64,000 bases of DNA, taken from contig CAZUZG010000001.1 in assembly GCA_964624665.1 (NCBI GenBank), positions 7,310-71,309 on the forward strand. The letters are read 5' to 3'. Source of the stretch: an uncultured Candidatus Saccharibacteria bacterium (GTDB taxonomy: Bacteria > Patescibacteriota > Minisyncoccia > Phycocordibacterales > UBA9973). A program made the position numbers and the translations under genes. Position 1 is the first letter of the stretch; each line of letters opens with the position of its first letter. This document shows, in pieces, positions 9,415-62,816 of this stretch. The notes beneath the pieces were generated by a model that was given only the letters and a program-made list of their open reading frames with translations, ran no database searches and was not told the origin of the DNA.

Positions 9415-12400
9415 TTATTCCTTCTTCGTTCTCTTTATTGAATCATAAACAATCTTAGAAATAGCATCCCTCTTGTTTTTTTTATCTTCCTCCGACAATT
9501 CCTCAAAGTTTACTTTCACCCGATACCCCTTAACTGTTTCCTCTGATGTACTTTCTTTTGCAATTACATTCAATAAATAATCTTGTATTTCACCTGGCTC
9601 AAAAACAAAGACTCTTTGAATATCCACTAAGTCAATATTAGCCTGGACAGTTTTTCTAATTTTCTCAATGTTCTTTTTTTCAGTTGGGCAGACTATAACA
9701 AAATTATAACCTGCCTTTAGACACTTCTTCACATTCTGTAATTCGTGCGCATCGCTTGTAGTAGAAGAAATTTCAACTGCAATTTTTAAATTGTTGCGGA
9801 TTAGCCCAACATCAACCTTTCCATTTGGTATCGCTTCTTCAATGGTTGCTTTAAAGCCAAAGGATTCGGCTATTCGTTTAATGAAGTTTTGAAAATACCG
9901 GTGTTCTGTTTCTTCTTTTTTAACTGGCGGCATCTTCGGTCCCTTTATAGCCTCAACTAAATTTTGGGAAACCTGATCTGATACAAATTCTTTTACTGTT
10001 TCTTTTTCAACTGGCTTCTCTTGTTTTATTGGCTTGGGTACTGATTGAACTGGCTCTGGCTTTTCTTCTTTTAAAGTTTCTGATTGGTAATAGAAGCGTG
10101 CAATTAATTCTTCAATCTCAGCTTTAGGTTTGCTGTATTTATCTCTCGAAAGATTTGTTATCTCTCTCCTTCTGCGCTTCCCTATCTCTGAATCTATATT
10201 CGGATTATTAAACACACTTAGGTTAAAGTCATTATCCGGCTTATCTATTTTTACAATCGCTTCTCCAGTTTCTAAATTCTGTAAGTTCTTTGAATCAAAG
10301 AAGGTAAAGCCATCGGCCAATTTACGGCTGTCTACTTCTCCTACCTTAAAGCAAATTCTTGTTCCGGCATTAGTTATTGAATTCGCTAAATCAACATCAC
10401 TCCTTGATAGTTGTAACAGGTCTTGGTGTGAAAGAGTAAGTCCCAAGCTAAATTTACGTCCCCCGGAAAGTATTGATTCCATTGAGGGGCTTAAAAAATA
10501 TTGGCATTCATCTACATAAACAAAAAAAGGTTTTCTATCTTCTTCTCTTATTAATTGTCTCGCAATTGCGACTTGATGTATTTTAGAGAGAATAAGGCTG
10601 CCTAAAAGATTGCTGTTCTCGATTCCAATCAATCCCTGTGATAGTTTTATCAGTAGTATCTTGTTTGAATTTACTATTTCATCAAAATTCAATCCGTCTC
10701 TTTGCGCAACCATATTGCGGATAAGTTTTGGGCGAAGGAATGAATCCAGGCGGGTTAATATCGGTCCGATTGAGTTGGTGCGTAATAACGGGTATTCTTT
10801 TTGCCAGTAATATACAATGCTTGGTTCGGTAACTGTTTTTAGAAATTCCGTCCTGAATGCCTTATCAACCAAAAATCTTTTTAAATCAATTAATGTGCCT
10901 CCGGCTTTGCTTTCAATAAAGGCGGCAACCGCATTGGCAAGTACGGCTGACATTTGTGCACCCCAGCCGGTTGTATATCTTTGGAATATAGAAACAAGGT
11001 CGGATGACAAAACATCCTTTTCAATTTCTGAATAGGCTTTCAAAATATTTATACCAACAGGAAACTCGGCGTCCGAGGGATCAACCAAGACTATGTCTTT
11101 ACACCTATTCTCCGGGATATGCTCAATTATGGAATCTATTAGATCACCATGTGGATCAAGCACAGCGCACCCTTTACCGCTTTTAATATCCTGAATTATT
11201 AAATTTTCCAAGAGCGTTGATTTTCCAGAACCCGTGACACCTATGACATGAAGATGTTTTAGGCGCTGGGTTGCACTTAGAGAAACTTTTGTTCCGCTAT
11301 CTCCGCAAACATTTTCGCCTAAGATAAAATCATGGCCTAAAGCAATGGCTGGCGCAGCTTTGGATTTCTTTGGTTCTGAATATATTTTTGTCGAGTTAAA
11401 TGAATGCGGAAAATGAACCAACGAAACAAGTTCTTCGCTGTTTAAAATCATTCCGCTTAAATGCGTTTGCCTTAATTTAAAGTCCTCATATCTTGTTTCA
11501 AATGGATAATCATCATGGGTTATTGGTATAAAGGCATTACTGCTTGGGTCTTTGAAAGTAGAAAAGGCCGTGCCAACATTAATGCCAAGTTCTAATACCT
11601 TTCGATCATCTAAACCTTGAACAAAAGTATTTACAACAACAGCAAATAAAGGTTTTGAAATTTTCTTCTTTGTCAGTTGTGCCATATCCGGCGCATCTGA
11701 AAAATATGATTCACCCTTGTGATTCATCACTGCCTTCACAATACTTTCAGACCAGGGCTTTTCAACTCCTTTAAATAGTACTTGCATGGCGCAAACTTCA
11801 CCATCCCGAAGATTATCCATTAGTCCCAACAATGCTATTAAAGGATCAAGTGAAAAACTCTTGTATGTTTTTATCGGGCGCATAAATTCTTCGGCAAGCC
11901 CAATACCATATATGGCGGAATTTCGTTCCTGAACTATGGCTTTGTTTAAGACTTCTTTTTCTTCTTGTAAAAAAGCATTGGGAAAAAATGTCTTTAATTG
12001 ATTGCGTAATTGATTAGCATCTGCGCTCCGGCATACATACTGGCAAACAATTCTCAGTTTGGTCCCGATTATCTCAAATGCAATTGGATATTTTGAATAA
12101 CTGAGCAGGGTTAAGAAACTTTCCGCTTCTTCTCCGCTAAATCTTTCGCCTTTCGGAAATGATATTTGTATTTCGTGATAGCCTGTTTGTCCGTCAAGCC
12201 TTTTAGGTTGGATATATTCTTCATCATCCGAAACAAAATTTCTATTAATATCCTGGTCAGATGAAACTACACCGACACTTTTAAAAAACGATTCAAATAG
12301 TCCGGTATTCGTCGGAGCATTATTCTGTCCCTTTGCATATCCTTTAAATGGCTTAAACGGCGGTTCTAATTCAACTGGATAGTCCCACAATAGCCAACCT

Positions 12401-12462
12401 CTGCCGCGACCTTCCCAGGAATAAAACTGCTCTGATATATTTTCGCCAAATGGTATATACAT
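9415..12462 (-). CDS. Large HerA/FtsK/TraD-like (DUF87-type) P-loop ATPase with ~400-aa N-terminal and ~300-aa C-terminal extensions
   Basis: Walker A HLHVIGVTGSGKSTL; KGCAVLDPHGDL motif; Walker B KPFFVYVDECQYF; LGLTLSHQDLLQL sensor region. Paralogous to ORF 60219..61514. The C-terminal region (GKVDVGLI..KIAVEISS..NFVIVCP) has an alternating beta/alpha pattern that could be a restriction-endonuclease-like fold; this is inference. Confidence 0.7.
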   Translation of the reverse strand: MYIPFGENISEQFYSWEGRGRGWLLWDYPVELEPPFKPFKGYAKGQNNAPTNTGLFESFFKSVGVVSSDQDINRNFVSDDEEYIQPKRLDGQTGYHEIQISFPKGERFSGEEAESFLTLLSYSKYPIAFEIIGTKLRIVCQYVCRSADANQLRNQLKTFFPNAFLQEEKEVLNKAIVQERNSAIYGIGLAEEFMRPIKTYKSFSLDPLIALLGLMDNLRDGEVCAMQVLFKGVEKPWSESIVKAVMNHKGESYFSDAPDMAQLTKKKISKPLFAVVVNTFVQGLDDRKVLELGINVGTAFSTFKDPSSNAFIPITHDDYPFETRYEDFKLRQTHLSGMILNSEELVSLVHFPHSFNSTKIYSEPKKSKAAPAIALGHDFILGENVCGDSGTKVSLSATQRLKHLHVIGVTGSGKSTLLENLIIQDIKSGKGCAVLDPHGDLIDSIIEHIPENRCKDIVLVDPSDAEFPVGINILKAYSEIEKDVLSSDLVSIFQRYTTGWGAQMSAVLANAVAAFIESKAGGTLIDLKRFLVDKAFRTEFLKTVTEPSIVYYWQKEYPLLRTNSIGPILTRLDSFLRPKLIRNMVAQRDGLNFDEIVNSNKILLIKLSQGLIGIENSNLLGSLILSKIHQVAIARQLIREEDRKPFFVYVDECQYFLSPSMESILSGGRKFSLGLTLSHQDLLQLSRSDVDLANSITNAGTRICFKVGEVDSRKLADGFTFFDSKNLQNLETGEAIVKIDKPDNDFNLSVFNNPNIDSEIGKRRRREITNLSRDKYSKPKAEIEELIARFYYQSETLKEEKPEPVQSVPKPIKQEKPVEKETVKEFVSDQVSQNLVEAIKGPKMPPVKKEETEHRYFQNFIKRIAESFGFKATIEEAIPNGKVDVGLIRNNLKIAVEISSTTSDAHELQNVKKCLKAGYNFVIVCPTEKKNIEKIRKTVQANIDLVDIQRVFVFEPGEIQDYLLNVIAKESTSEETVKGYRVKVNFEELSEEDKKNKRDAISKIVYDSIKRTKKE

Positions 12463-18764: not shown

Positions 18765-19628
18765 TTGAAAATCAAAAAGGAAAATAAGGAAATTGCCAAT
18801 ACAAATTTTACTGAAAATTCAGTCGAAAAGAATGCCCTTTTACCCCAAGATGCGTTCCTGAAAAAATTTAAGATTTCACCAAAACTTTTTGAATCAACAG
18901 AAATAAAATGGAACGAATTACAAAAAATCCATGCACATTATATTAAAAATCAGGAATTCCTACAAAATACTGTTAACACAATTATTTCAAAATTTGTAAC
19001 AAATGATGCCAAAGATGTTGGGGTTCACTCTGTACGTTCTCGTTTGAAAAAGCCAGATAGTTTAATTGAAAAAATTATTCGAAAGACTATTGATGCAAGG
19101 AAAAAAGGTGGTAATCGAAATATTACGGTTAGAAATTATGGTAATGAAATTAATGATCTAATTGGTATAAGAATATTACATGTTTTTAAAGATGATTGGT
19201 TCGGAATTCACAATTTTATTTTAAGCAATTGCGAATACAAGACAAAAGGAAAACCACTCGCTTACTATAGGAAAGGTGATGAAAAATCATTTATTTCAGA
19301 ATGTAAAAAAAATGGATGTGATGCAAAAGTGCATCCAAAGGCATATAGGTCTATTCATTATATTATTAATCCATATCCTCAACAAAAAATTGGATTTGCT
19401 GAAATTCAAGTTAGAACGGTTTTTGAAGATGGTTGGAGTGAAATAGATCATAAGCTTAGATACGCTTCTAAAAAAGGAACAAAAAATAAATTAGATAGCT
19501 ATTTACTCGCTTTAAATAGAATAGCGGGAAGTGCGGACGAAATTGGAACTATTATAAGAAATAGACAAACAGAATTAAGGCAGGCAGAGTATGAGAGACA
19601 ACTTAATGTTAAAAAAGGAAACAAGTGA
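18765..19628 (+). CDS. RelA/SpoT-domain nucleotidyltransferase (small alarmone synthetase-like; toxSAS-like)
   Basis: All four synthetase motifs are present: VGVHSVRSRLKKPDSLIEKI; INDLIGIRILHVFKDDW; HPKAYRSIHYII; AEIQVRTVFEDGWSEIDHKLRYA (EiQiRT...W.E..H). No HD hydrolase domain. 287 aa. Confidence 0.75.
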   Translation: MKIKKENKEIANTNFTENSVEKNALLPQDAFLKKFKISPKLFESTEIKWNELQKIHAHYIKNQEFLQNTVNTIISKFVTNDAKDVGVHSVRSRLKKPDSLIEKIIRKTIDARKKGGNRNITVRNYGNEINDLIGIRILHVFKDDWFGIHNFILSNCEYKTKGKPLAYYRKGDEKSFISECKKNGCDAKVHPKAYRSIHYIINPYPQQKIGFAEIQVRTVFEDGWSEIDHKLRYASKKGTKNKLDSYLLALNRIAGSADEIGTIIRNRQTELRQAEYERQLNVKKGNK

Positions 19629-19887
19629 GATTATGTTAGATACAGCGATCGGTCCCATAATAAGAATTATAGACGCAAATTCTTTCCAGATGCAGGTGAC
19701 ACATATCGGCAGGCATAATGCTTATTCGTATGCAAACTATGAAACTGTGTGTATTGCCCCTAACCCAAACTTAATCCATGCAACTCAATTATCGACAGCT
19801 TTAATTGGTAGAAGAATAAAATGTAAAGTTCAATATAGAGATAATTACAACCGGCTTTATGGGGAAGTTGAATTTGATAACTCTTAG
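19591..19887 (+). CDS. Small degenerate staphylococcal-nuclease (SNase)-like OB-fold protein, probably non-catalytic; overlaps the RelA/SpoT-like gene by 38 nt
   Basis: 98 aa. Alignable to SNase, but catalytic/Ca-binding residues are replaced (IDANSF in place of IDGDT; VCIAPNPN in place of RLLLVDTPE). Paralog of ORF 22335..22643. Confidence 0.5.
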   Translation: MRDNLMLKKETSEIMLDTAIGPIIRIIDANSFQMQVTHIGRHNAYSYANYETVCIAPNPNLIHATQLSTALIGRRIKCKVQYRDNYNRLYGEVEFDNS

Positions 19888-19920
19888 TTTGTAATTTTAT
19901 AAGTGTCTGATCGATTTCCC

Positions 19921-20131
19921 AGAGATGTACTGTATTTTCAGCAACACCAATAATTCCAGCCACCACTTTCTGACCTATCTGAAGTTCTGCCCTTCTCTTT
20001 CGAATATGCTCTCCTATTGTATTCATAGGCATTCTTGTTAATTCAGGCTTGATCGCTCTTAAAGTGACCGGATAAAGAGGTAGATTTTCTTTAATTATTT
20101 GGAGAATTTCCTCAATAGTTTGAACCTTCTT
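19921..20131 (-). pseudogene. Remnant of the 3' end of a paralogous large serine recombinase gene (C-terminal ~70 codons including the HTH)
   Basis: Minus-strand translation upstream of the 90-aa ORF reads ...IIKENLPLYPVTLRAIKPELTRMPMNTIGEHIRKRRAELQIGQKVVAGIIGVAENTVHLWE. This is collinear with recombinase 20205..21956 C-terminus ...TILSLAYPLRPVVLKGIKPEFKRLPVNTLGDHLRKRRKELGLFQKDVAIILKISEDSLTYWE. It begins directly after an in-frame stop at 20132-20134, so no N-terminal part is present. Confidence 0.65.
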
Positions 20132-20204: not shown

Positions 20205-21956
20205 CTAAAATCCTGGAGAATATCCTAGAAATTCTATGATCGTAGCATGGTGCTTTTTTTGAGGTTTAGCCCTTCCATTTTCCCAATAAGTCAACGAATC
20301 TTCACTTATTTTTAAGATAATTGCCACATCTTTCTGGAAAAGCCCGAGTTCCTTCCGCCGCTTCCTTAGGTGGTCACCTAATGTATTGACGGGCAGTCTT
20401 TTAAACTCTGGTTTTATGCCTTTTAAAACTACCGGCCTCAATGGATAGGCAAGAGAGAGAATGGTCAATGAAACTATGTGGTTTCGTAGACCATTCTCTG
20501 TGAATTTCGGAGAGGCATTGAGGTTGTTGAGCGTAATCTCAATCTCGGTTTTGTTGACTATTATCTTGTTGGTAATGGATTCAATAATAAAGCGCTTGTC
20601 TTCATCGTTGTAGGTTCCCCAATTTTCATAAACGTTTTGGCTTTTGGAAATTGCCTCATTGTTGTTTATGACCTGAATCTTCATAAAATCGACATCGGAT
20701 TGGATAATGGCTAATTCCTCCTCTTTTTGGTTTAAACGCTCTTGTATGGGCATATAGCGCTTATTAAACCCTTCTTTGGGTATCTCTTGGCTGTTTAATA
20801 GGTCAAATAGAGTATCTATCTCAGAATTGATTTTTTTAATGTCAGCTTTAAGCAAATCCCTTTTTTGTTCGCTTTCTTTTACAATATTCTCATTGTCTTT
20901 GAAATGATCTGAAACATCGGTGGTGTTCCAGTATTTTTTGACTTCGTAAAGGAATACTTCCTCGATGTCGGGAATTGTGATTTTGTTCCGGCATTTGGTG
21001 CAAGTATATTTTTTGATACTTGGGATTACATACATCTTGTGATTTGGGTCACAATAGCAGAACATTAAGCCAGAGAATAGGTTAATGGTTTTCTTAGGTT
21101 GCTTCACTCTGTTTATCTTATTCCCATTCAAAATGGAAATACACTGGTTGAATGTTTCTTCTGAAATAATGGCCGGAGCAGGATTAATTATCCATTCGGA
21201 TTCAGGTTTTAACTTCCAGGCCTTTTTATCACCTGTAGACTTGGTATAGTTGCGGATTCTTGAACCCATAGCAATTGGGTCCCGAAGTAACCGGTCTATG
21301 GTTGCATCTGAGAATTCTGAATTATTCCGAGTTCTATATCCCCTCCTATTCAGTTCGTTCGCTACAGTTAATTTGCGTTTGTGCTTTAGGAATAAGTCAT
21401 ACATTAGTTTACGGACTTTAGATTCTTCCTCGTTTATTGCAAGATTCTTTGCTGAATCATACATATATCCAAAAGGGGCTGCGCCACCTAAAGGTTTGCC
21501 CATCTTTGCGCGAATTGGCACACTAGCCGCAACACGTTCAGCGATTTCTTCCCTTTCAAATTGGGCTAATGCTGCAATGACGGTAAAGAATAGCCGTCCT
21601 GCGCCGGAGCTGGTATCAATGCTTTCGTGAAGGCTAATGAGGTCGGCATCATGTTTACGGAACATTTCAGCAAAGCTTAATAGTTCCGTTGTGTTTCTTG
21701 ATAGCCTGGCAAGCTTTGAGAATATTAAGCCAGTGATCTTACCCGATTTAATGTCGCTTAGCATCTTGGCTGTTTCAGGATAATCCATTACTGATTTTCC
21801 TGATTTCGCATCGAGTCTATACATTTCTTTTACCTCCCACCCTTTGGCTTCGGCATATAGTCGCCCACGCTTTTCGTGAACCTCTGGGCTTTCACTATTT
21901 ACTGAGTCTTCATGGCTTACACGAATCCATAGTCCTACTGATTTACTGCTTTGCAT
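20205..21956 (-). CDS. Large serine recombinase (resolvase domain + recombinase domain + zinc ribbon) with C-terminal XRE-like HTH
   Basis: GLWIRVSHEDS (catalytic Ser context) and LHESIDTSSGAGRLFFTVIAALAQFEREEIAERV (resolvase); CYCDPNHKMY...CTKCRNK (zinc ribbon); C-terminal LGDHLRKRRKELGLFQKDVAIILKISEDSLTYWENG. Confidence 0.85.
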   Translation of the reverse strand: MQSSKSVGLWIRVSHEDSVNSESPEVHEKRGRLYAEAKGWEVKEMYRLDAKSGKSVMDYPETAKMLSDIKSGKITGLIFSKLARLSRNTTELLSFAEMFRKHDADLISLHESIDTSSGAGRLFFTVIAALAQFEREEIAERVAASVPIRAKMGKPLGGAAPFGYMYDSAKNLAINEEESKVRKLMYDLFLKHKRKLTVANELNRRGYRTRNNSEFSDATIDRLLRDPIAMGSRIRNYTKSTGDKKAWKLKPESEWIINPAPAIISEETFNQCISILNGNKINRVKQPKKTINLFSGLMFCYCDPNHKMYVIPSIKKYTCTKCRNKITIPDIEEVFLYEVKKYWNTTDVSDHFKDNENIVKESEQKRDLLKADIKKINSEIDTLFDLLNSQEIPKEGFNKRYMPIQERLNQKEEELAIIQSDVDFMKIQVINNNEAISKSQNVYENWGTYNDEDKRFIIESITNKIIVNKTEIEITLNNLNASPKFTENGLRNHIVSLTILSLAYPLRPVVLKGIKPEFKRLPVNTLGDHLRKRRKELGLFQKDVAIILKISEDSLTYWENGRAKPQKKHHATIIEFLGYSPGF

Positions 21957-22334
21957 TGTTACTGAATTTAAGAGTTAATTTACTGAATCTTGGTTTAATA
22001 AAAAATTAAATTTTTCAAAAGAAAAAAGGACAAAAAAGAAAGCGATAATAAAAAGCACGGGTTTCTTGGTGTCAAGGTTTTTTGAACAAAATATTTTTAC
22101 TTCAAAAAATTAACGCTAAAATATATTTTCAAAAACTTGTATAACCTTTACTCCAAGAAACACGTGCTTACCTTTGCGACCTTTTTTGTTTTTTCATTTG
22201 GAAAACAGGGAGATTTAAAATGTGTCGAAACTCACCCAATTTTTTTTTAAAATCATTAGTTGGTTTGCCTGCAAAGTATATATTAGCAATCGAATAAGAA
22301 AATTTCAAAAAATTATTATTTGTAAAAACAAATT

Positions 22335-22643
22335 ATGGTAGCTCAGGTACGAGGCAAAAAGAAAGAAACTATGTTTGATACTATTATCGGGTCGGTTGTA
22401 AGCATTGCTAATGGCAATACCTTTACAATGCAAGTTACCCATATTGGTATTAATAATATTCTTTCTTACAAAAACCTTGAGATTATAAGAATAATTGACA
22501 AGGAGTCTGCTGACCTATCAACAACCAAAGGATTTTCTGATAAAAAAGAACTTTCTAATCTTTTAATTGGGAAAAAGATTAAATGCAAAATTCATCACAG
22601 AAACGAATACAATATACTCTTAGCCAATATTGAAATAATTTAA
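22335..22643 (+). CDS. Degenerate SNase-like OB-fold small protein (paralog of 19591..19887)
   Basis: VVSIANGNTFTMQVTH / LEIIRIIDKES / ELSNLLIGKKIKCKIHHRNEYNILLANIEI align with SNase ATLIKAIDGDTVKL / FRLLLVDTPET / [34 protein letters not shown]. D21/D19 become N and R87 becomes I. Confidence 0.5.
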   Translation: MVAQVRGKKKETMFDTIIGSVVSIANGNTFTMQVTHIGINNILSYKNLEIIRIIDKESADLSTTKGFSDKKELSNLLIGKKIKCKIHHRNEYNILLANIEII

Positions 22644-23235
22644 ACTCAAATTCTGCATTCATGGCAAGTGCAATGAAATAAAATATTAGGTATGGCACAA
22701 AAGGGGCAAGCATATTTTATTTATTGCTCTTGCACTCAGGCGGGTGTTTTTGTGATTAAATAAATTTGGTCTTGCTCTGCAAGGCGATTTATTTAATTAC
22801 AAAAACACGAAGGGTTGGCGTGGGTCAGCTGTGCGGCTATTTACACATAATGCCAATTATATTGTGAAGAAATTAACTCCGCGCGAAGCGCACCTTTGAA
22901 AAAGTCTGAGCGATATAATTTGCATTATGTTATATAGCTTAGGGCTATATTTTCATCGCATCCTTTTTTGTGTGTAAGCCAACTCTTTTCAACCACAGCT
23001 TCGTTTTGACGAAGCGAGGATTGGAATGGGTTGTTTGTGGGCGGATAAAAAAATGCGGTGAAAATATAGCAGAAGGGCTGGCGTGCGGAAGCGGCAAAAA
23101 TACAGTAAAGCCCGAAGCATGAAGGGCAGTGGATTTTTGCCGCTGGGGACTTTTTTGCTCTTTCGATAATTCCCTTCTTATTATCTAAATGCTACGATCC
23201 ATTCAGAAGTTTCAACAAACAAAAACCTTTCTGAA
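22644..23235. other. ~590-bp GC-enriched non-coding region with several strong hairpins (candidate structured RNA or recombination/regulatory region)
   Basis: No long ORF. 10-bp inverted repeat TTAAATAAAT..(21 nt)..ATTTATTTAA at ~22755-22795; GCTTCG/CGAAGC hairpin at ~22997-23020; 11-bp stem GCGGCAAAAAT...ATTTTTGCCGC at ~23090-23145 followed by a T-run. The motif GG(T/C)TGGCGTG(G/C)G is repeated at ~22812 and ~23073. Confidence 0.35.
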
Positions 23236-23970
23236 ATGGAAACACTCAGCTCTTTCACATCAATTTTCGACAAAGTGGCCTATGGAAACAATTACACTAA
23301 AACATTCGATGATTTTCTTATTATGTGTCTTTGCGCATTCAGTAGAAATCCGGAAACAGGTTTATCCTATAATGAGGATGAATATTTACAAATCATTGAG
23401 CCTTACAAAAAAGATGATCGAGTAAAATATTTCCCACAACTATTAGGCTCAATGATTCTTTATATGGAGGACCATAAAGATAGTGATAGCGGAAACGACC
23501 TACTTGGCTCATTTTATGAAAAGGAGCTAAGCCTAGGAAAAAACGGGCAATTCTTTACCCCCTTTCATATTTGTTCGATGATGGCTAAAATGCAAGGGAA
23601 CCAAGATAAAAGCAGATCGCTTAATATTTTGGACCCATGCTGCGGAAGCGGGAGGATGCTTATGGCTCATGGGAAAAGTAACGGAGGATTCAACAATCAC
23701 TACGGAATAGATATTGACCCGTTATGCGTAAGAATGACAACAATAAACTTATTTCTAAATGGATTAAGCGGTGAAGTTATCTGCGCTAATGCACTTATAC
23801 CGGATGACTTTAGATTCGGGTATAGAATATCATTTCTTCCTTTCGGAGTTTTTAGAATTGATAAAAAAGAAGATTCTGTGCTTTGGCAAATTAATCAGGC
23901 TACATTTGAGTCGAGAATTGCAAATCATGAATCAAATAAGCCTACTCAGGAACAGCTACGATTATTTTGA
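23236..23970 (+). CDS. N6-adenine DNA methyltransferase-like protein, truncated (motifs X and I present, motif IV NPPY absent); probably a remnant or non-catalytic
   Basis: GQFFTPFHICSMMA (motif X) and ILDPCCGSGRML (motif I, SAM binding). No (D/N/S)PP(Y/F) follows within the 244 aa, whereas HsdM-like enzymes are about twice this length. Confidence 0.45.
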   Translation: METLSSFTSIFDKVAYGNNYTKTFDDFLIMCLCAFSRNPETGLSYNEDEYLQIIEPYKKDDRVKYFPQLLGSMILYMEDHKDSDSGNDLLGSFYEKELSLGKNGQFFTPFHICSMMAKMQGNQDKSRSLNILDPCCGSGRMLMAHGKSNGGFNNHYGIDIDPLCVRMTTINLFLNGLSGEVICANALIPDDFRFGYRISFLPFGVFRIDKKEDSVLWQINQATFESRIANHESNKPTQEQLRLF

Positions 23971-24498
23971 TTTAAACAACAACTCCCGTAATTTAACATT
24001 GCAGGAGTTTTATTTATTGGAGACGCTTTTGATAATAAAAGTAGAAACAACTAAAGCTCCCATTTAAAAGTAGACTCAAAGCCTCTGCGCAAGTTAAATC
24101 ATTATTTTATTAATTTTATGGCTATAAAAAAATAAAAGTGTATTGTTTCTTACAACTGGAATTGAATCATCGCGCCGCACTTCTATGGGAGAACGGAACC
24201 CATCTTCAAACTATAATCCAGCCTAAAAAAACATATTCTCTTTATCATTTAAAAAGCTTTTATGTTGAAGTTATTGTCCATAACAACCTGAATGAAATCA
24301 TTGATATTACCCCCTTTGTTAGAGGTTGGAGATTGGACAAATATCTTGAAATTATTGAGATTGAGGAGATATAAAAAAGAAATTTTAATTATTATAATCT
24401 ATCCTGCTTAAAGCCACATTGCTAAAAAATTCAGTATATATTATCTGCTTCCATAATTAGGATATTTCATATAAGGCATTTTATATTTAAAACTCGGA

Positions 24499-60218: not shown

Positions 60219-61514
60219 CTAAAGCCGCCTGTTTCGATTTTTCAAATGCTCTTCTATCTCATCTTTATTCCTTGCATATTGCATCCGAGAAAATCTTATT
60301 ACATCATCCTTAAATGAAATATCTCTTTCAGGTATGGGCAAAGTTCTTGCACTAAATGGCCTGGAAGTCATTCCGTCAATCATTAGTTTTAAATATATGG
60401 AATGATTAGGTAAGTTTGCCAAGTCTTGTACGCCAAATACCGGTTTAAATTCATGTTCTAAATACCCAGCATCTTCTGCGCCAACTCTAAATGAAATAAT
60501 GGTTCCGGTATTGCCAAAAACTGCTGTTCTAATTTTCTCATGTAATTGCCCTACATACTGGTGCGCCAAGAGCAAGGATAAACCATACTTGCGGGCTTCC
60601 GAAAGAATATCACCAAAAGATAGATTGGCAAAAGAGCTGAACTCGTCTACATACAGATAAAAAGGCTTTCGCTCATGTTCTGCTTGATCAGCCCGCCGCA
60701 AGGCTGCAAGCTGCAATGTTGTAACAAACATCCCGCCCAAAAGCGCAGTGTTATCCTCCCCAATTTTTCCCTTTGAAAGATTAGCAATAAATATTTTCCC
60801 TTCATCCATTATGTTTTGAATCCGGAAGCTTCTTGATTCCTGGCCGACAATATTTCTAAGCGGTGGGCTTGATAAAAATTGTCCCATTTTATTTAAAATC
60901 GGCGCAACTGCTTCACTCTGCAACCAAGGTGAATATTTTTCAAATTCTCCCTGCCAAAAGGCTTTGATATATGGATTAGTTAATCGGCCAACAACTTTAT
61001 CTCGGAAAACCTTATCGGTTAAAAGTATTGGAATATCAAGCAATGTACTACGTGGGTTTTCCAATAAAGTAAATAAAGTATTTCTTAATATGTGTTCCAA
61101 TCTTGGTCCCCAAAATTCAAACCATATCTTTTTAAAAGTTGAAATTAATCCGGAAACTAATAAATGATGATTATCTGGGTGCACATTCCCCAGTGGATTA
61201 TATGCCATTGGAAAATCCAAATCCCCGGCATTGAAATATATGACATCAGCAATTCTTTCTTGTGGTACATGATTCAGTATTTCTTCAGACAAATCTCCAT
61301 GCGGATCAATCAACCCAATCCCCTTTCCTTTTTTAATATCAGAGATAACCATATTAGCTATAAGTGTTGATTTACCAACACCAGTCTTTCCCACAACATA
61401 GATATGTCCACTTCGGTCTTTGTCCTTGATACCGAAAACATCTTTAGTATTTCTATAATCGGTTGTACCGAAGTGGGTGACCGAATCAATATTCTCATTT
61501 TTGTTTTCATTCAT
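60219..61514 (-). CDS. HerA/FtsK/TraD-like (DUF87-type) P-loop ATPase, 431 aa; paralog of the ATPase core in 9415..12462
   Basis: Walker A HIYVVGKTGVGKSTL; KGKGIGLIDPHGDL; Walker B KPFYLYVDEFSSF; LSLLLAHQYVGQL. Alignable over ~330 aa with the 1015-aa protein. 7-nt gap to the upstream MTase gene. Confidence 0.7.
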   Translation of the reverse strand: MNENKNENIDSVTHFGTTDYRNTKDVFGIKDKDRSGHIYVVGKTGVGKSTLIANMVISDIKKGKGIGLIDPHGDLSEEILNHVPQERIADVIYFNAGDLDFPMAYNPLGNVHPDNHHLLVSGLISTFKKIWFEFWGPRLEHILRNTLFTLLENPRSTLLDIPILLTDKVFRDKVVGRLTNPYIKAFWQGEFEKYSPWLQSEAVAPILNKMGQFLSSPPLRNIVGQESRSFRIQNIMDEGKIFIANLSKGKIGEDNTALLGGMFVTTLQLAALRRADQAEHERKPFYLYVDEFSSFANLSFGDILSEARKYGLSLLLAHQYVGQLHEKIRTAVFGNTGTIISFRVGAEDAGYLEHEFKPVFGVQDLANLPNHSIYLKLMIDGMTSRPFSARTLPIPERDISFKDDVIRFSRMQYARNKDEIEEHLKNRNRRL

Positions 61515-61521
61515 ATATTAT

Positions 61522-62514
61522 TTAAAATTTTGTAGAGCTAATAATTGCGACCATGATTTCTCGAATAACATTTACCGTAACTGCATTTCCTAAACACTTG
61601 TATCTCTGTGTATCGCTTACACCCTCGGTCCAGCCATCAGGAAACCCTTGCAATCGCTCGCACTCAGTCGGAGTGAAATAGCGCAATTTCATTCCATCAA
61701 CTGTTCCTTGAGACATGCTTGTGGTTAAAGTGTGTGTCTTATCTTTAATTACCCTGCCATGCCTTGTTTTACTACGGGGATAATCATAGGAAATACCATC
61801 TCCTTTTGTAGCGTATGTAAAGCCACCCTTTTTAGTGGCTTCAAATATTCTTAGTCTTTTCTTTTGTACCGGGATACGGATATAACCTCCATTGGACTGC
61901 GCCCCGTAATAGCGTGCTGTGAGTGTGGGCACAACAATATTCTTTTTGTCGCTCTTTCCGAAAGGAAATACTTTGGGTCTGCCGGTTCCTCTAAGATGTC
62001 CAATAATAAAGACTCTTTCTCTGTTCTGTGGAACTCCGAAATTCTTGCTGTTAAGCACTTGCCATTGCACGTCATACCCCAATTCAACAAGCGAGGTAAT
62101 GATGGTTTTAAAAGTTTTTCCGTTGTTGTGAGAAAGCAATCCTTTAACATTTTCAAGGAAGACAAGTCGAGGTTTTTTTGCTCGCAGTATTCTCGCAATT
62201 TCAAAAAAGACTTCCCCTCTGGAATCTTCAAACCCTTTTCTTTTCCCAGCAATGCTAAAAGCTTGGCAAGGAAACCCTCCAACGAGCAAATCGAAATCTG
62301 GGAGTTCCGATGTTTTGATTTTTGTGACATCTCCATAGTTTTTGTGATTACCAAAATGCCTTTCGTAAATGCAGGCTGCGTGCTTATCGATTTCCGCGTA
62401 ACCAACACAATCAAATTGTCGCCTTTTCTTAAAACTAACCTGAACAATTTTTAATGCTTGTTGTATGCCCAATTCAAAGCCCCCAATACCGCTGAATAAC
62501 GATAAATATTTCAT
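61522..62514 (-). CDS. dcm: DNA (cytosine-5)-methyltransferase
   Basis: Motif I LFSGIGGFELG; motif IV GFPCQAFSIAG; motif VI LVFLENVKGL; motif VIII QNRERVFIIG; motif IX/X TPTECERLQGFPDGWT...GNAVTVNV. Confidence 0.9.
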   Translation of the reverse strand: MKYLSLFSGIGGFELGIQQALKIVQVSFKKRRQFDCVGYAEIDKHAACIYERHFGNHKNYGDVTKIKTSELPDFDLLVGGFPCQAFSIAGKRKGFEDSRGEVFFEIARILRAKKPRLVFLENVKGLLSHNNGKTFKTIITSLVELGYDVQWQVLNSKNFGVPQNRERVFIIGHLRGTGRPKVFPFGKSDKKNIVVPTLTARYYGAQSNGGYIRIPVQKKRLRIFEATKKGGFTYATKGDGISYDYPRSKTRHGRVIKDKTHTLTTSMSQGTVDGMKLRYFTPTECERLQGFPDGWTEGVSDTQRYKCLGNAVTVNVIREIMVAIISSTKF

Positions 62515-62592
62515 AGTAGGTTTAGAAGAACTATTTTTTTCCTTTCATTCTCGACCTAAACAAAATAGTATCTCTTTGAAAAATATATTGGC

Positions 62593-62632
62593 AGTAGTGG
62601 GAATTTTGCTTTAAAGCAAAATTCCCACTACT
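62593..62632. promoter_or_regulatory. 40-bp perfect palindrome AGTAGTGGGAATTTTGCTTT|AAAGCAAAATTCCCACTACT in the divergent intergenic region upstream of the MTase operon
   Basis: Read directly, zero mismatches. ~80 bp upstream of the dcm start and ~185 bp upstream of the small + strand ORF. Confidence 0.6.
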
Positions 62633-62816
62633 TAACTCCTTCTCGATTGTAAGGATAATAGAACCCGGATTAAGTTCTTTCGGGTGATTTAATAATCAAG
62701 CCTTTATCCGACAAAAGCTACACATGTCGAAGTGATTTCAAAAAAGGGAGTAGTTCGGCTGCTTCCTTTTTTGAAATCAACCACGTCTATTAACAAATAA
62801 AAGGAGAAATGATAGT

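Follow-up and report, generated by a model that had tools for sequence, protein, structure and literature searches.

A conserved, strand-specifically folding non-coding element of about 480 nt upstream of an HsdM-like gene: a candidate structured RNA

The window, that is, the whole 64-kb stretch of DNA that was analysed, contains a non-coding element of ~480 nt that forms five successive long hairpins (H1 to H5) on the + strand at 22664-23157. The element folds in a strand-specific manner, is well conserved in a second, independent copy, and is linked to the gene downstream of it. With a probability that we put at roughly 0.55, it encodes a structured RNA of the + strand, either as a leader or as a stand-alone RNA. 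We infer that the element is transcribed, and the functions offered for it below are guesses. Few structured RNAs of bacteria exceed 400 nt, and several of these few have opened up new biology. The present element is strongly constrained and matches no described family, and its companion, on mobile elements that move defence genes around, is an apparently inactive HsdM-like protein. As an RNA, it would represent a new family of large RNAs tied to the establishment of mobile elements. If it acts as single-stranded DNA (ssDNA), it would be the place where transfer or replication begins in a class of minimal hitch-hiking islands of Bacteroidota.

Location, composition and hairpins of the element

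The non-coding region is bounded by a 102-aa ORF, which stops at 22643, and a 244-aa ORF, which starts at 23236. A preliminary description had called this region free of ORFs and enriched in GC, and both statements held. There is no ORF longer than 50 aa in it and none that is conserved in L004, the Logan contig carrying the second copy, and the GC content is 0.40-0.45 in 22700-23200, compared with 0.26-0.32 in the left flank and 0.33-0.42 in the gene to the right. On the folding (+) strand of the element G exceeds C, and the setting is AT-rich. Long inverted repeats (15 nt or more, within 130 nt) number 20 in the whole 64-kb window; four of them fall in 22744-23144, and a fifth long inverted repeat is located just upstream of the element (22053-22169). 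The parts of the element and the genes that follow it are listed below, with z for the single hairpins.

22664-22733, + strand: H1, AU-rich hairpin of ~29 bp (z -3.9)
22744-22808, + strand: H2, 22-nt arms with an inner 7-bp stem at 22769-22785 (z -10.4)
22814-22819, + strand: 5' strand (GUUGGC) of the junction-closing helix, pairing with 23077-23082 in the consensus fold
22820-22844, + strand: small G-U-rich hairpin within the junction (consensus pairs, columns 85-109)
22845-22930, + strand: H3, 18-nt arms of 94% complementarity, up to a GCGC-GAA-GCGC tip (z -6.2)
22944-23070, + strand: H4, 127-nt hairpin of ~50 bp with 24-nt outer arms (z -7.9)
23077-23082, + strand: 3' strand (GCUGGC) of the junction-closing helix in the consensus fold
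23090-23156, + strand: H5, 15-nt arms of 93% complementarity (stem to 23144), then a T-run (z -3.0)
23157-23235, + strand: leader of the methylase-like gene, unstructured and rich in pyrimidines; identity to L004 80-85%
23236-23970, + strand: HsdM-like (methylase-like) protein of 244 aa, from Pfam and PDB alignments and the translation
24138-24374, + strand: 78-aa ORF without family match, 70% DNA identity in L004

The hairpins and motifs named in the preliminary description were all present where it had placed them, but they turned out to be parts of larger hairpins. The arms of H2 (22744-22765 and 22787-22808) are 95% complementary, and TTAAATAAAT (22756-22765) and ATTTATTTAA (22787-22796), with a 21-nt loop between them, are the inner part of these arms. 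The GCTTCG/CGAAGC pair (22998-23003 and 23010-23015) is the tip of H4, and GCGGCAAAAAT (23091-23101) pairs with ATTTTTGCCGC (23133-23143) in H5. The T-run at 23151-23156 begins 6 nt past the full H5 stem, an arrangement that is terminator-like but not canonical. A terminator scan flagged 23127-23145 with its T-rich tail, in the same orientation as the downstream gene. The raised GC content, the excess of G over C on the folding strand, and the terminator-like 3' hairpin are features typical of a structured RNA, while the spacing of 6 nt between H5 and the U-run, which is not that of a textbook terminator, counts against the RNA reading.

The duplicated motif that had been reported is also there, at 22809-22829 and 23072-23092, with 81% identity between the copies. 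Each copy holds a quasi-palindrome, GUUGGC and GCUGGC, and in the consensus fold the GUUGGC at 22814-22819 pairs with the GCUGGC at 23077-23082 in a helix of 6 bp, which closes a junction with the small hairpin, H3, and H4 inside. In L004 there is a T-to-C change in each strand of this helix, by which a U-G and a G-U wobble become G-C pairs. In this fold the element is thus more than a row of independent hairpins. By estimate, the chance expectation for the 21-nt repeat alone is roughly 0.1; a better account of the repeat is that its copies are the opposite strands of a quasi-palindromic helix. A duplication of a whole module (H2 and H3 against H4 and H5) was considered too, but the alignment gave no support for it.

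The + strand is favoured in folding

The folding energy of the whole region was -216.9 kcal/mol for the + strand (z -9.5 against shuffled sequences) and -166.4 kcal/mol for the - strand (z -5.9). When 22655-23165 was folded, the + strand reached -199.5 kcal/mol and the - strand -142.0 kcal/mol, 57 kcal/mol weaker. The + strand fold of this segment has 186 pairs, 23 of them G-U, and no A-C single mismatch, whereas the - strand fold has five G-U pairs and five A-C mismatches. The L004 copy showed the same strand pattern of G-U and A-C. With DNA folding parameters the + strand was still favoured (-110 versus -87 kcal/mol).

In repeats that act as double-stranded DNA (dsDNA), G-T and A-C are expected to be equal in number. 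The bias therefore indicates selection on the + strand in single-stranded form, as RNA or as ssDNA. As a control, published Frpo single-strand promoters were folded, with sequences taken from the supplement of PMC11541004. The ColIb-P9 Frpo1 and Frpo2 have 7-10 G-T against 0-1 A-C on the transferred strand. Because these proven ssDNA elements share the bias, an excess of G-T over A-C is proof of single-strandedness and does not separate RNA from ssDNA.

The control leaves room for a second reading, in which the + strand acts as an ssDNA cis element in transfer or rolling-circle replication, either as an oriT borrowed from a helper ICE or as a single-strand origin or priming site. We regard this reading as the strongest rival of an RNA, though an unlikely one. 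The strand-specific wobble is compatible with it, whereas the GC enrichment and the purine bias suit an RNA better; further points on both sides come from the conservation and from the neighbouring genes, as described below.

Conservation and pair-preserving changes in L004

L004 was the only independent relative of the element that we found. A protein search with the downstream 244-aa ORF gave 404 relatives, the closest of which (P0002, 87% identical) is encoded on L004. Searches for exactly matching proteins yielded nothing but the source contig and near-identical copies. The element and its L004 copy are 82.5% identical overall, and in 40-nt bins the core (22700-23145) is 88-97% identical. 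For the methylase-like gene, the identities at codon positions 1, 2, and 3 are 91%, 95%, and 64%, respectively, with 57% at fourfold sites. No other part of the module is thus as well conserved as the non-coding core. H2 is identical in L004 but for one pair. The least conserved part of the element is the 5' arm of H1, with 57% identity and an indel; the GCAAG/CUUGC closing pairs of H1 are nevertheless kept, and its AU stem is present in altered form. In the leader at 23157-23235, L004 carries a 39-nt duplication at the 5' end. The conservation spans loops and stems alike, as would be expected of sites recognised by a protein, which speaks for an ssDNA element.

A consensus fold was computed by RNAalifold on the two sequences, the window element and L004. 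In it five pairs are changed on both sides, and all of them are still paired. Four are in defined hairpins, GC to UG and AU to GC in H3, and CG to UA at the base and UA to CG at the tip of H4; the fifth, CG to AU, is in a weak outer helix. A further 13 pairs are changed on one side between G-U and Watson-Crick with pairing kept, and H4 has six one-sided changes that keep the pairing. In the single-sequence fold of H2-H5, seven switches from G-U to Watson-Crick and no switch to A-C were counted, with 5-6 pair breaks, mostly small internal loops. As only two independent sequences are compared, the covariation is thin. The high identity of the core could in principle come from a recent exchange of just that segment. 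Judged from the aligned sequences, strong purifying selection on the non-coding core is much the likelier cause, given substitutions that keep to the fold.

The block of homology shared with L004 comprises 22664-24018 and 24136-24377 of the window, and both flanks differ. Its 5' start coincides with the 5' edge of the element (22664), and it spans the methylase-like gene and the 78-aa ORF. The upstream neighbour in L004 is an OLD/TOPRIM nuclease gene on the opposite strand, and there is no recombinase beside the element. The companions of the element are therefore the downstream methylase-like gene and the 78-aa ORF, and not the recombinase of the window.

This result bears on the suggestion in the preliminary description that the region serves for recombination or attachment. 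Bacteroidota use invertible promoters flanked by inverted repeats, and a large serine recombinase gene lies 700 bp from the element, so that several kinds of site acting as dsDNA came into question: a segment that can be inverted, sites to which a recombinase binds, or an attachment region belonging to the serine-recombinase element. We consider such sites very unlikely. The L004 copy is conserved beside a different neighbour, the OLD-family nuclease, without a recombinase; the 23:0 ratio of G-U to A-C and the seven versus zero switches in H2-H5 are not expected of dsDNA sites; and the nested junction is unlike a simple flanked segment.

Coding potential

The preliminary description had also named a degraded gene as an option, and this option was rejected. 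The region is more conserved than codon positions 1 and 2 of the neighbouring gene, it differs from L004 by 1-nt indels, and the longest ORFs of the + strand are broken there. In L004 a stop codon interrupts the 33-aa ORF (22766-22867), and 1-nt indels break the 50-aa ORFs. From these indels and the stop codon it follows that no ORF is conserved, and the conservation of the element relative to L004 showed no codon periodicity. Homologues of the region might have been annotated with spurious ORFs by gene callers; a search was therefore also made with its translated frames free of stops, and no protein relatives were found among 5.8 billion sequences.

The exception in frame is a hydrophobic mini-ORF of 16 codons, MLYSLGLYFHRILFCV (22927-22977), which is kept in L004 with three synonymous and three replacement changes. 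Messenger RNAs of the hok type are ~400 nt long and very structured, and the element could accordingly be the structured mRNA of a small toxin of a type I toxin-antitoxin system. We hold this, like a decayed protein gene, to be most improbable in view of the broken ORFs, the translated frames without relatives, the lack of codon periodicity, and a conservation above that of the neighbouring gene; a product of 16 aa is also below the known sizes of toxins.

Searches for known families

No family of Rfam 15 matched at the gathering threshold anywhere in the window or in L004. At E <= 10, the element matched only eukaryotic miRNA and snoRNA models, far below threshold and of the kind that match any hairpin; outside the element, one sub-threshold thermometer and two lncRNA models were listed. 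A scan for tRNA and tmRNA found none, and blastn against phage and plasmid records gave no match. With nhmmer and relaxed blastn, no match to the element was found in the 80 genome loci where relatives of the methylase-like gene occur, nor in five further loci. Exact-pattern scans of viral contigs gave chance matches or none. The scan of metagenomes with GGCGTGGGTNAGCTGTGCGGC gave 59 matches, all by chance, 50 of which were in one coding gene of gut bacteria.

The element shares several features with GOLLD, ROOL, HEARO/omega RNA, OLE, and raiA. Like these RNAs, it is several hundred nucleotides long, enriched in GC relative to an AT-rich genome, folded into many helices with a closed junction, borne by a mobile element, and strongly conserved. 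Unlike them, it matches no Rfam model even at E <= 10, it was found in two lineages only, and it consists mainly of long near-perfect hairpins instead of an ornate multi-junction fold. Its constant neighbour is an HsdM-like pseudo-enzyme, whereas those RNAs are found with tRNAs, IscB, or membrane proteins.

The structured RNA of the preliminary description was thus borne out in so far as the fold is specific to the + strand, is under purifying selection, and shows pair-preserving changes, but the likeness to retron ncRNA that had been suggested did not hold. Like a retron msr-msd, the element lies in non-coding DNA close to defence genes and combines inverted repeats with a long hairpin. However, it has no adjacent reverse transcriptase gene: the flanking ORFs encode the 102-aa protein without family match and the HsdM-like protein, and no RVT domain was detected in the 30 window ORFs scanned, a set that left out the giant ORFs at 27-55 kb, which are not adjacent. 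With ~480 nt and five hairpins, the element is two to three times longer than a retron msr-msd, which measures about 150-250 nt. Its sole long-range helix is the internal 6-bp junction helix, and it lacks the a1/a2 architecture flanking a single msd hairpin.

An integron attC site was also rejected. The R''/R' boxes (RYYYAAC/GTTRRRY) are absent at the hairpin bases, the stems are near-perfect, and there is no integron integrase, the nearby enzyme being a serine recombinase.

The neighbouring genes and their context

The 102-aa ORF upstream had been labelled SNase-like, a label for which we found no support: it matched nothing in Pfam, NCBIfam, PADLOC, or the PDB. A paralogue of it (19591-19887, 42% identical) adjoins a gene with a RelA/SpoT domain.

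The HsdM-like protein downstream keeps the SAM-binding motifs FFTP and DPCCGSG (DPxCGSG in the family). In place of the catalytic NPPF of motif IV it has FLPF, and its C-terminal end lies ~40 aa further; the alignments to Pfam N6_Mtase and to EcoR124 HsdM end before motif IV. An HsdM methyltransferase of a Type I R-M system was rejected for the FLPF in place of NPP[FYW] and for the family length of ~244 aa. Nor is the gene a truncated N6-MTase, as had been thought: the Bacteroidota family to which it belongs has proteins of 240-270 aa, and among these it is of full length. Judging from its motifs, the HsdM-like protein appears to be catalytically degenerate. Together with the putative RNA and the 78-aa ORF, it most likely forms a conserved module of three parts, as far as can be read from the two sequences.

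In the 80 genome loci and several metagenome contigs, the methylase-like gene has one of the following as a neighbour: ArdC, small type IV coupling proteins, a large serine recombinase, or tyrosine integrases within about 2-3 kb of it. The gene also often borders defence genes: OLD nuclease (L004), NACHT (L005), Shedu SduA (L179), and AAA_15/21 (L183/L184). From this combination of ICE genes and variable defence genes, we concluded that the methylase-like gene belongs to the backbone of ICEs and of small integrative elements with defence cargo. The protein is probably an anti-restriction or establishment factor, and in the window the module most likely borders on the variable cargo of a small integrative element in a Bacteroidota bacterium.

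Such contexts of conjugation and establishment, with ArdC, type IV coupling proteins, and integrases beside the family, are in favour of the ssDNA cis element introduced above. The window element and several of the relatives are tiny and without a relaxase, like the 'oriT-only' islands that have been described (bioRxiv 10.64898/2026.01.13.699239). The likeness to the sso of rolling-circle plasmids and ICEs and to oriT extends to its being orientation-specific, non-coding, rich in hairpins, within 150-500 nt, and on a mobile element. However, no Rep or relaxase gene is nearby, and neither conserved sso motifs nor a nick motif were recognised. Known oriTs have one to three short inverted repeats, whereas here there are five hairpins with ~150-190 bp of stem, much longer and more numerous than in sso or oriT. 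Moreover, if the + strand is the one transferred, the adjacent anti-restriction-like gene will not be expressible from it.

A further reading is a single-strand promoter of the Frpo/ssi type, from which the methylase-like gene would be expressed early on the incoming transferred strand. Frpo elements are situated upstream of genes of the anti-restriction type in the leading regions of plasmids (PMC11541004), and, like Frpo/ssi of enterobacterial plasmids, the window element is a structured non-coding element of a few hundred bases that is richer in GC than its flanks; the gene directly downstream is probably of such a type, on an element that may be transferable. H4, a long imperfect hairpin, has a Frpo-like size, and in ICE-type relatives of the gene family a repeated element lies upstream that has just the geometry expected. 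We nevertheless take a promoter of this type to be highly improbable. The strand that folds better is the sense strand, while the ColIb-P9 Frpo controls fold better as the template (transferred) strand. The -33/-7 consensus is absent from the hairpin arms on both strands, and a lone antisense TAnnTTTG in H5 is lost in L004. Frpo/ssi is one long hairpin and not five separate ones. The profile of the ICE-type repeated element gave no match to the window, so that the window element, which differs from Frpo in strand and in promoter, was rejected as a copy of it.

Proposed fold and action of the RNA

In the structured RNA that we prefer, two 5' hairpins (H1 and H2) would be followed by the 6-bp helix of 22814-22819 and 23077-23082, which would close the junction holding the small hairpin, H3, and H4, and the terminal H5 and the U-run would come last. 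The RNA would be read from the sense strand, codirectionally with the downstream gene, and would end or pause at H5. It might work in cis, as a long structured leader that separates the expression of the methylase-like gene from that of the upstream cargo. Alternatively, it might be a stand-alone RNA working with the proteins of the module.

Two further observations count against an RNA. No promoter of the Bacteroidetes type (TTG-N17-23-TAnnTTTG) was present on either strand of 22600-23240 or in the L004 copy; single -7-like boxes in the element are on the wrong arm or not conserved, and other promoter searches of the region were negative. In addition, long near-perfect stems of 20-30 bp are unusual for riboswitch-like or ribozyme RNAs.

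Hairpin arrays in other small integrative elements

Hairpin arrays were also found beside other members of the methylase-like family. The window and the loci were scanned for folds by a regression-based method, and by a rough count, windows with z < -4 just upstream of the family were no commoner than background. The arrays at L012:1388-1948 and L015:72-630 are paralogous and 87% identical, with seven to eight hairpins of 19-26 bp each (z -22). On the strand opposite the methylase-like gene they have 21 G-U versus 0-1 A-C, and six compensatory pairs, three of them consecutive, distinguish the two copies. The blocks shared by the two loci are the methylase-like gene and the array only. Another array, L006:2752-3160 (z -9.3 on the strand opposite the methylase-like gene), has a homologue at L179:1591-1892. 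In L179 a Shedu gene stands between the array and the methylase-like gene and is flanked by a leader repeat of roughly 140 nt. A further array was found at L074:960-1340.

The window element resembles these arrays (L012/L015, L006/L179, and L074) in its row of long hairpins over 300-600 nt, with G-U wobble specific to one strand, in its conservation between paralogous or related elements, and in its position, as the arrays adjoin the methylase-like gene or sit across cargo from it. With that gene they bracket or adjoin variable cargo. However, they have no detectable sequence similarity to the window element, and their folding strand is opposite to the methylase-like gene, while that of the window element is the same. 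These likenesses raise the idea that hairpin-array RNAs are a new class of large ncRNA whose partner is a catalytically dead HsdM-like protein, on small integrative elements of Bacteroidota that bear defence cargo, an idea that we find rather doubtful. The window element would be one family of such a class, and L012/L015 and L006/L179 would be others; the class might serve as an RNA-protein device for anti-restriction or establishment, or as a cis landmark for the swapping of defence cassettes.

Other leads in these loci were dismissed. A similarity of the structured region of L006 to the window element, seen by eye, was not significant. The structured gap in L063, upstream of a distant relative, is a decayed ArdC gene, and that in L018 is an apparent membrane ORF of 59 codons, as read by eye.

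A repeated element upstream of genes in ICE-type loci

Sixteen ICE-type loci (L060-L086) carry the repeated element mentioned above. It is roughly 200 nt long, occurs in one to three copies, always in the orientation of the genes, and each copy ends at a start codon, for example that of ArdC. A consensus fold of 21 copies has compensatory changes in 16 of its 24 pairs. The sequence TTG-N19-22-TAnnTTTG is found antisense in 17 of 32 copies, in the distal arm of a long-range helix, and in none of the 32 on the sense strand. By analogy, this geometry is the one expected of a Frpo-like single-strand promoter with the transferred strand as template. A promoter on ssDNA, an RNA leader, and a divergent promoter are all candidate readings of the element. 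The repeated element may be of wider importance: if the first reading is confirmed, single-strand promoters would extend beyond enterobacterial plasmids. The two gene-proximal hairpins of the ICE-type element lean to G-U on the sense strand, as a transcribed 5' UTR would.

Structured regions beside relatives of the methylase-like gene

The HsdM-like methylase gene directly 3ʹ of the element had been taken as truncated in the preliminary description, which was not borne out: window 23236-23970 encodes a full-length protein of a family found in Bacteroidota, with 404 relatives. SAM-binding motifs are present in the protein, and the catalytic NPPF is changed to FLPF. ArdC, coupling proteins and integrases are recurrent neighbours of the family, and the edge of variable defence cargo is another recurrent position of the gene. 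Several loci with relatives of this gene also carried structured regions.

L012:1388-1948 and L015:72-630, paralogous hairpin arrays, 87% identical
L006:2752-3160, minus strand, homologous structured region
L179:1559-1886 and 3043-3185, minus strand, homologue of the L006 region (z from -9 to -12 for the two)

Each array of L012 and L015 consists of 7-8 near-perfect hairpins of 19-26 bp. The arrays gave a z of -22, and the strand opposite the methylase-like gene showed 21 G-U against 0-1 A-C. The only two blocks common to both loci are the hairpin array and the methylase-like gene.

L006 and L179 are related tyrosine-integrase elements, and a tRNA gene (L006:2233-2305) adjoins the former. In L179 the array and the methylase-like gene are separated by an inserted Shedu (SduA_C) gene, and a direct repeat (~140 nt) of the leader flanks this insertion.

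A repeated element in ICE-type loci

The ICE-type loci with methylase-like genes (L060-L086) contain a ~200-nt structured element in 1-3 copies per locus, as in this example.

L071:773-971, 1882-2079 and 3885-4095, copies of the ~200-nt element

Every copy is oriented as the genes are, and ends at the start codon of ArdC or a neighbouring gene. Covariation was found in 16 of the 24 consensus pairs. Of 32 copies, 17 have the Bacteroidetes -33/-7 consensus (TTG-N19-22-TAnnTTTG) in their antisense strand, placed in the distal arm of the hairpin, and no copy has it on the sense strand. The ~200-nt element is a candidate for a Frpo-like family of single-strand promoters in Bacteroidota.

Small ORFs within and upstream of the element

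22927-22977, hydrophobic 16-codon mini-ORF within the element, MLYSLGLYFHRILFCV
22335-22643, 102-aa ORF upstream of the element
20205-20400 and 19760-20032, both minus strand, similarity between the C-terminal part of the recombinase and a 90-aa ORF
18765-19887, RelA/SpoT-domain gene and overlapping 98-aa ORF

In L004, the only independent relative found of the element, the frame of the mini-ORF is intact, with 3 synonymous and 3 replacement changes.

An HTH domain makes up the last ~63 aa of the serine recombinase (583 aa). Over its first 39 residues it shares 49% identity with the N-terminal 39 aa of the 90-aa ORF directly downstream; beyond that point the similarity is lost. This resemblance suggests either that an XRE-type regulator gene holds an integration junction or that two elements lie side by side.

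The 98-aa and 102-aa ORFs share 42% identity, and neither protein gave a family match. Possibly the 287-aa RelA/SpoT-domain protein is a toxin of the small alarmone-synthetase type, paired with a partner.

Further inverted repeats and the left third of the window

22053-22169, hairpin flanked by the recombinase gene and the 102-aa ORF; its 27-nt arms are 89% complementary and enclose a loop of 63 nt
60219-62800, minus strand, C-5 cytosine methylase and small coupling-protein-like genes
62593-62632, perfect 40-nt palindrome upstream of these two genes
62733-62779, hairpin with 21-nt arms, likewise upstream
9415-12462, HerA/TraD-like ATPase, 1015 aa
6930-8642, DUF7379 protein

The hairpin at 22053-22169 is the longest inverted repeat of the window. 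At 60219-62800 lies a second mobile-element module, and the region upstream of it is structured. A defence island seems to occupy the left third of the window. The ATPase matched mad8 of the methylation-associated defence system in PADLOC (E 4e-19). The DUF7379 protein adjoins it.
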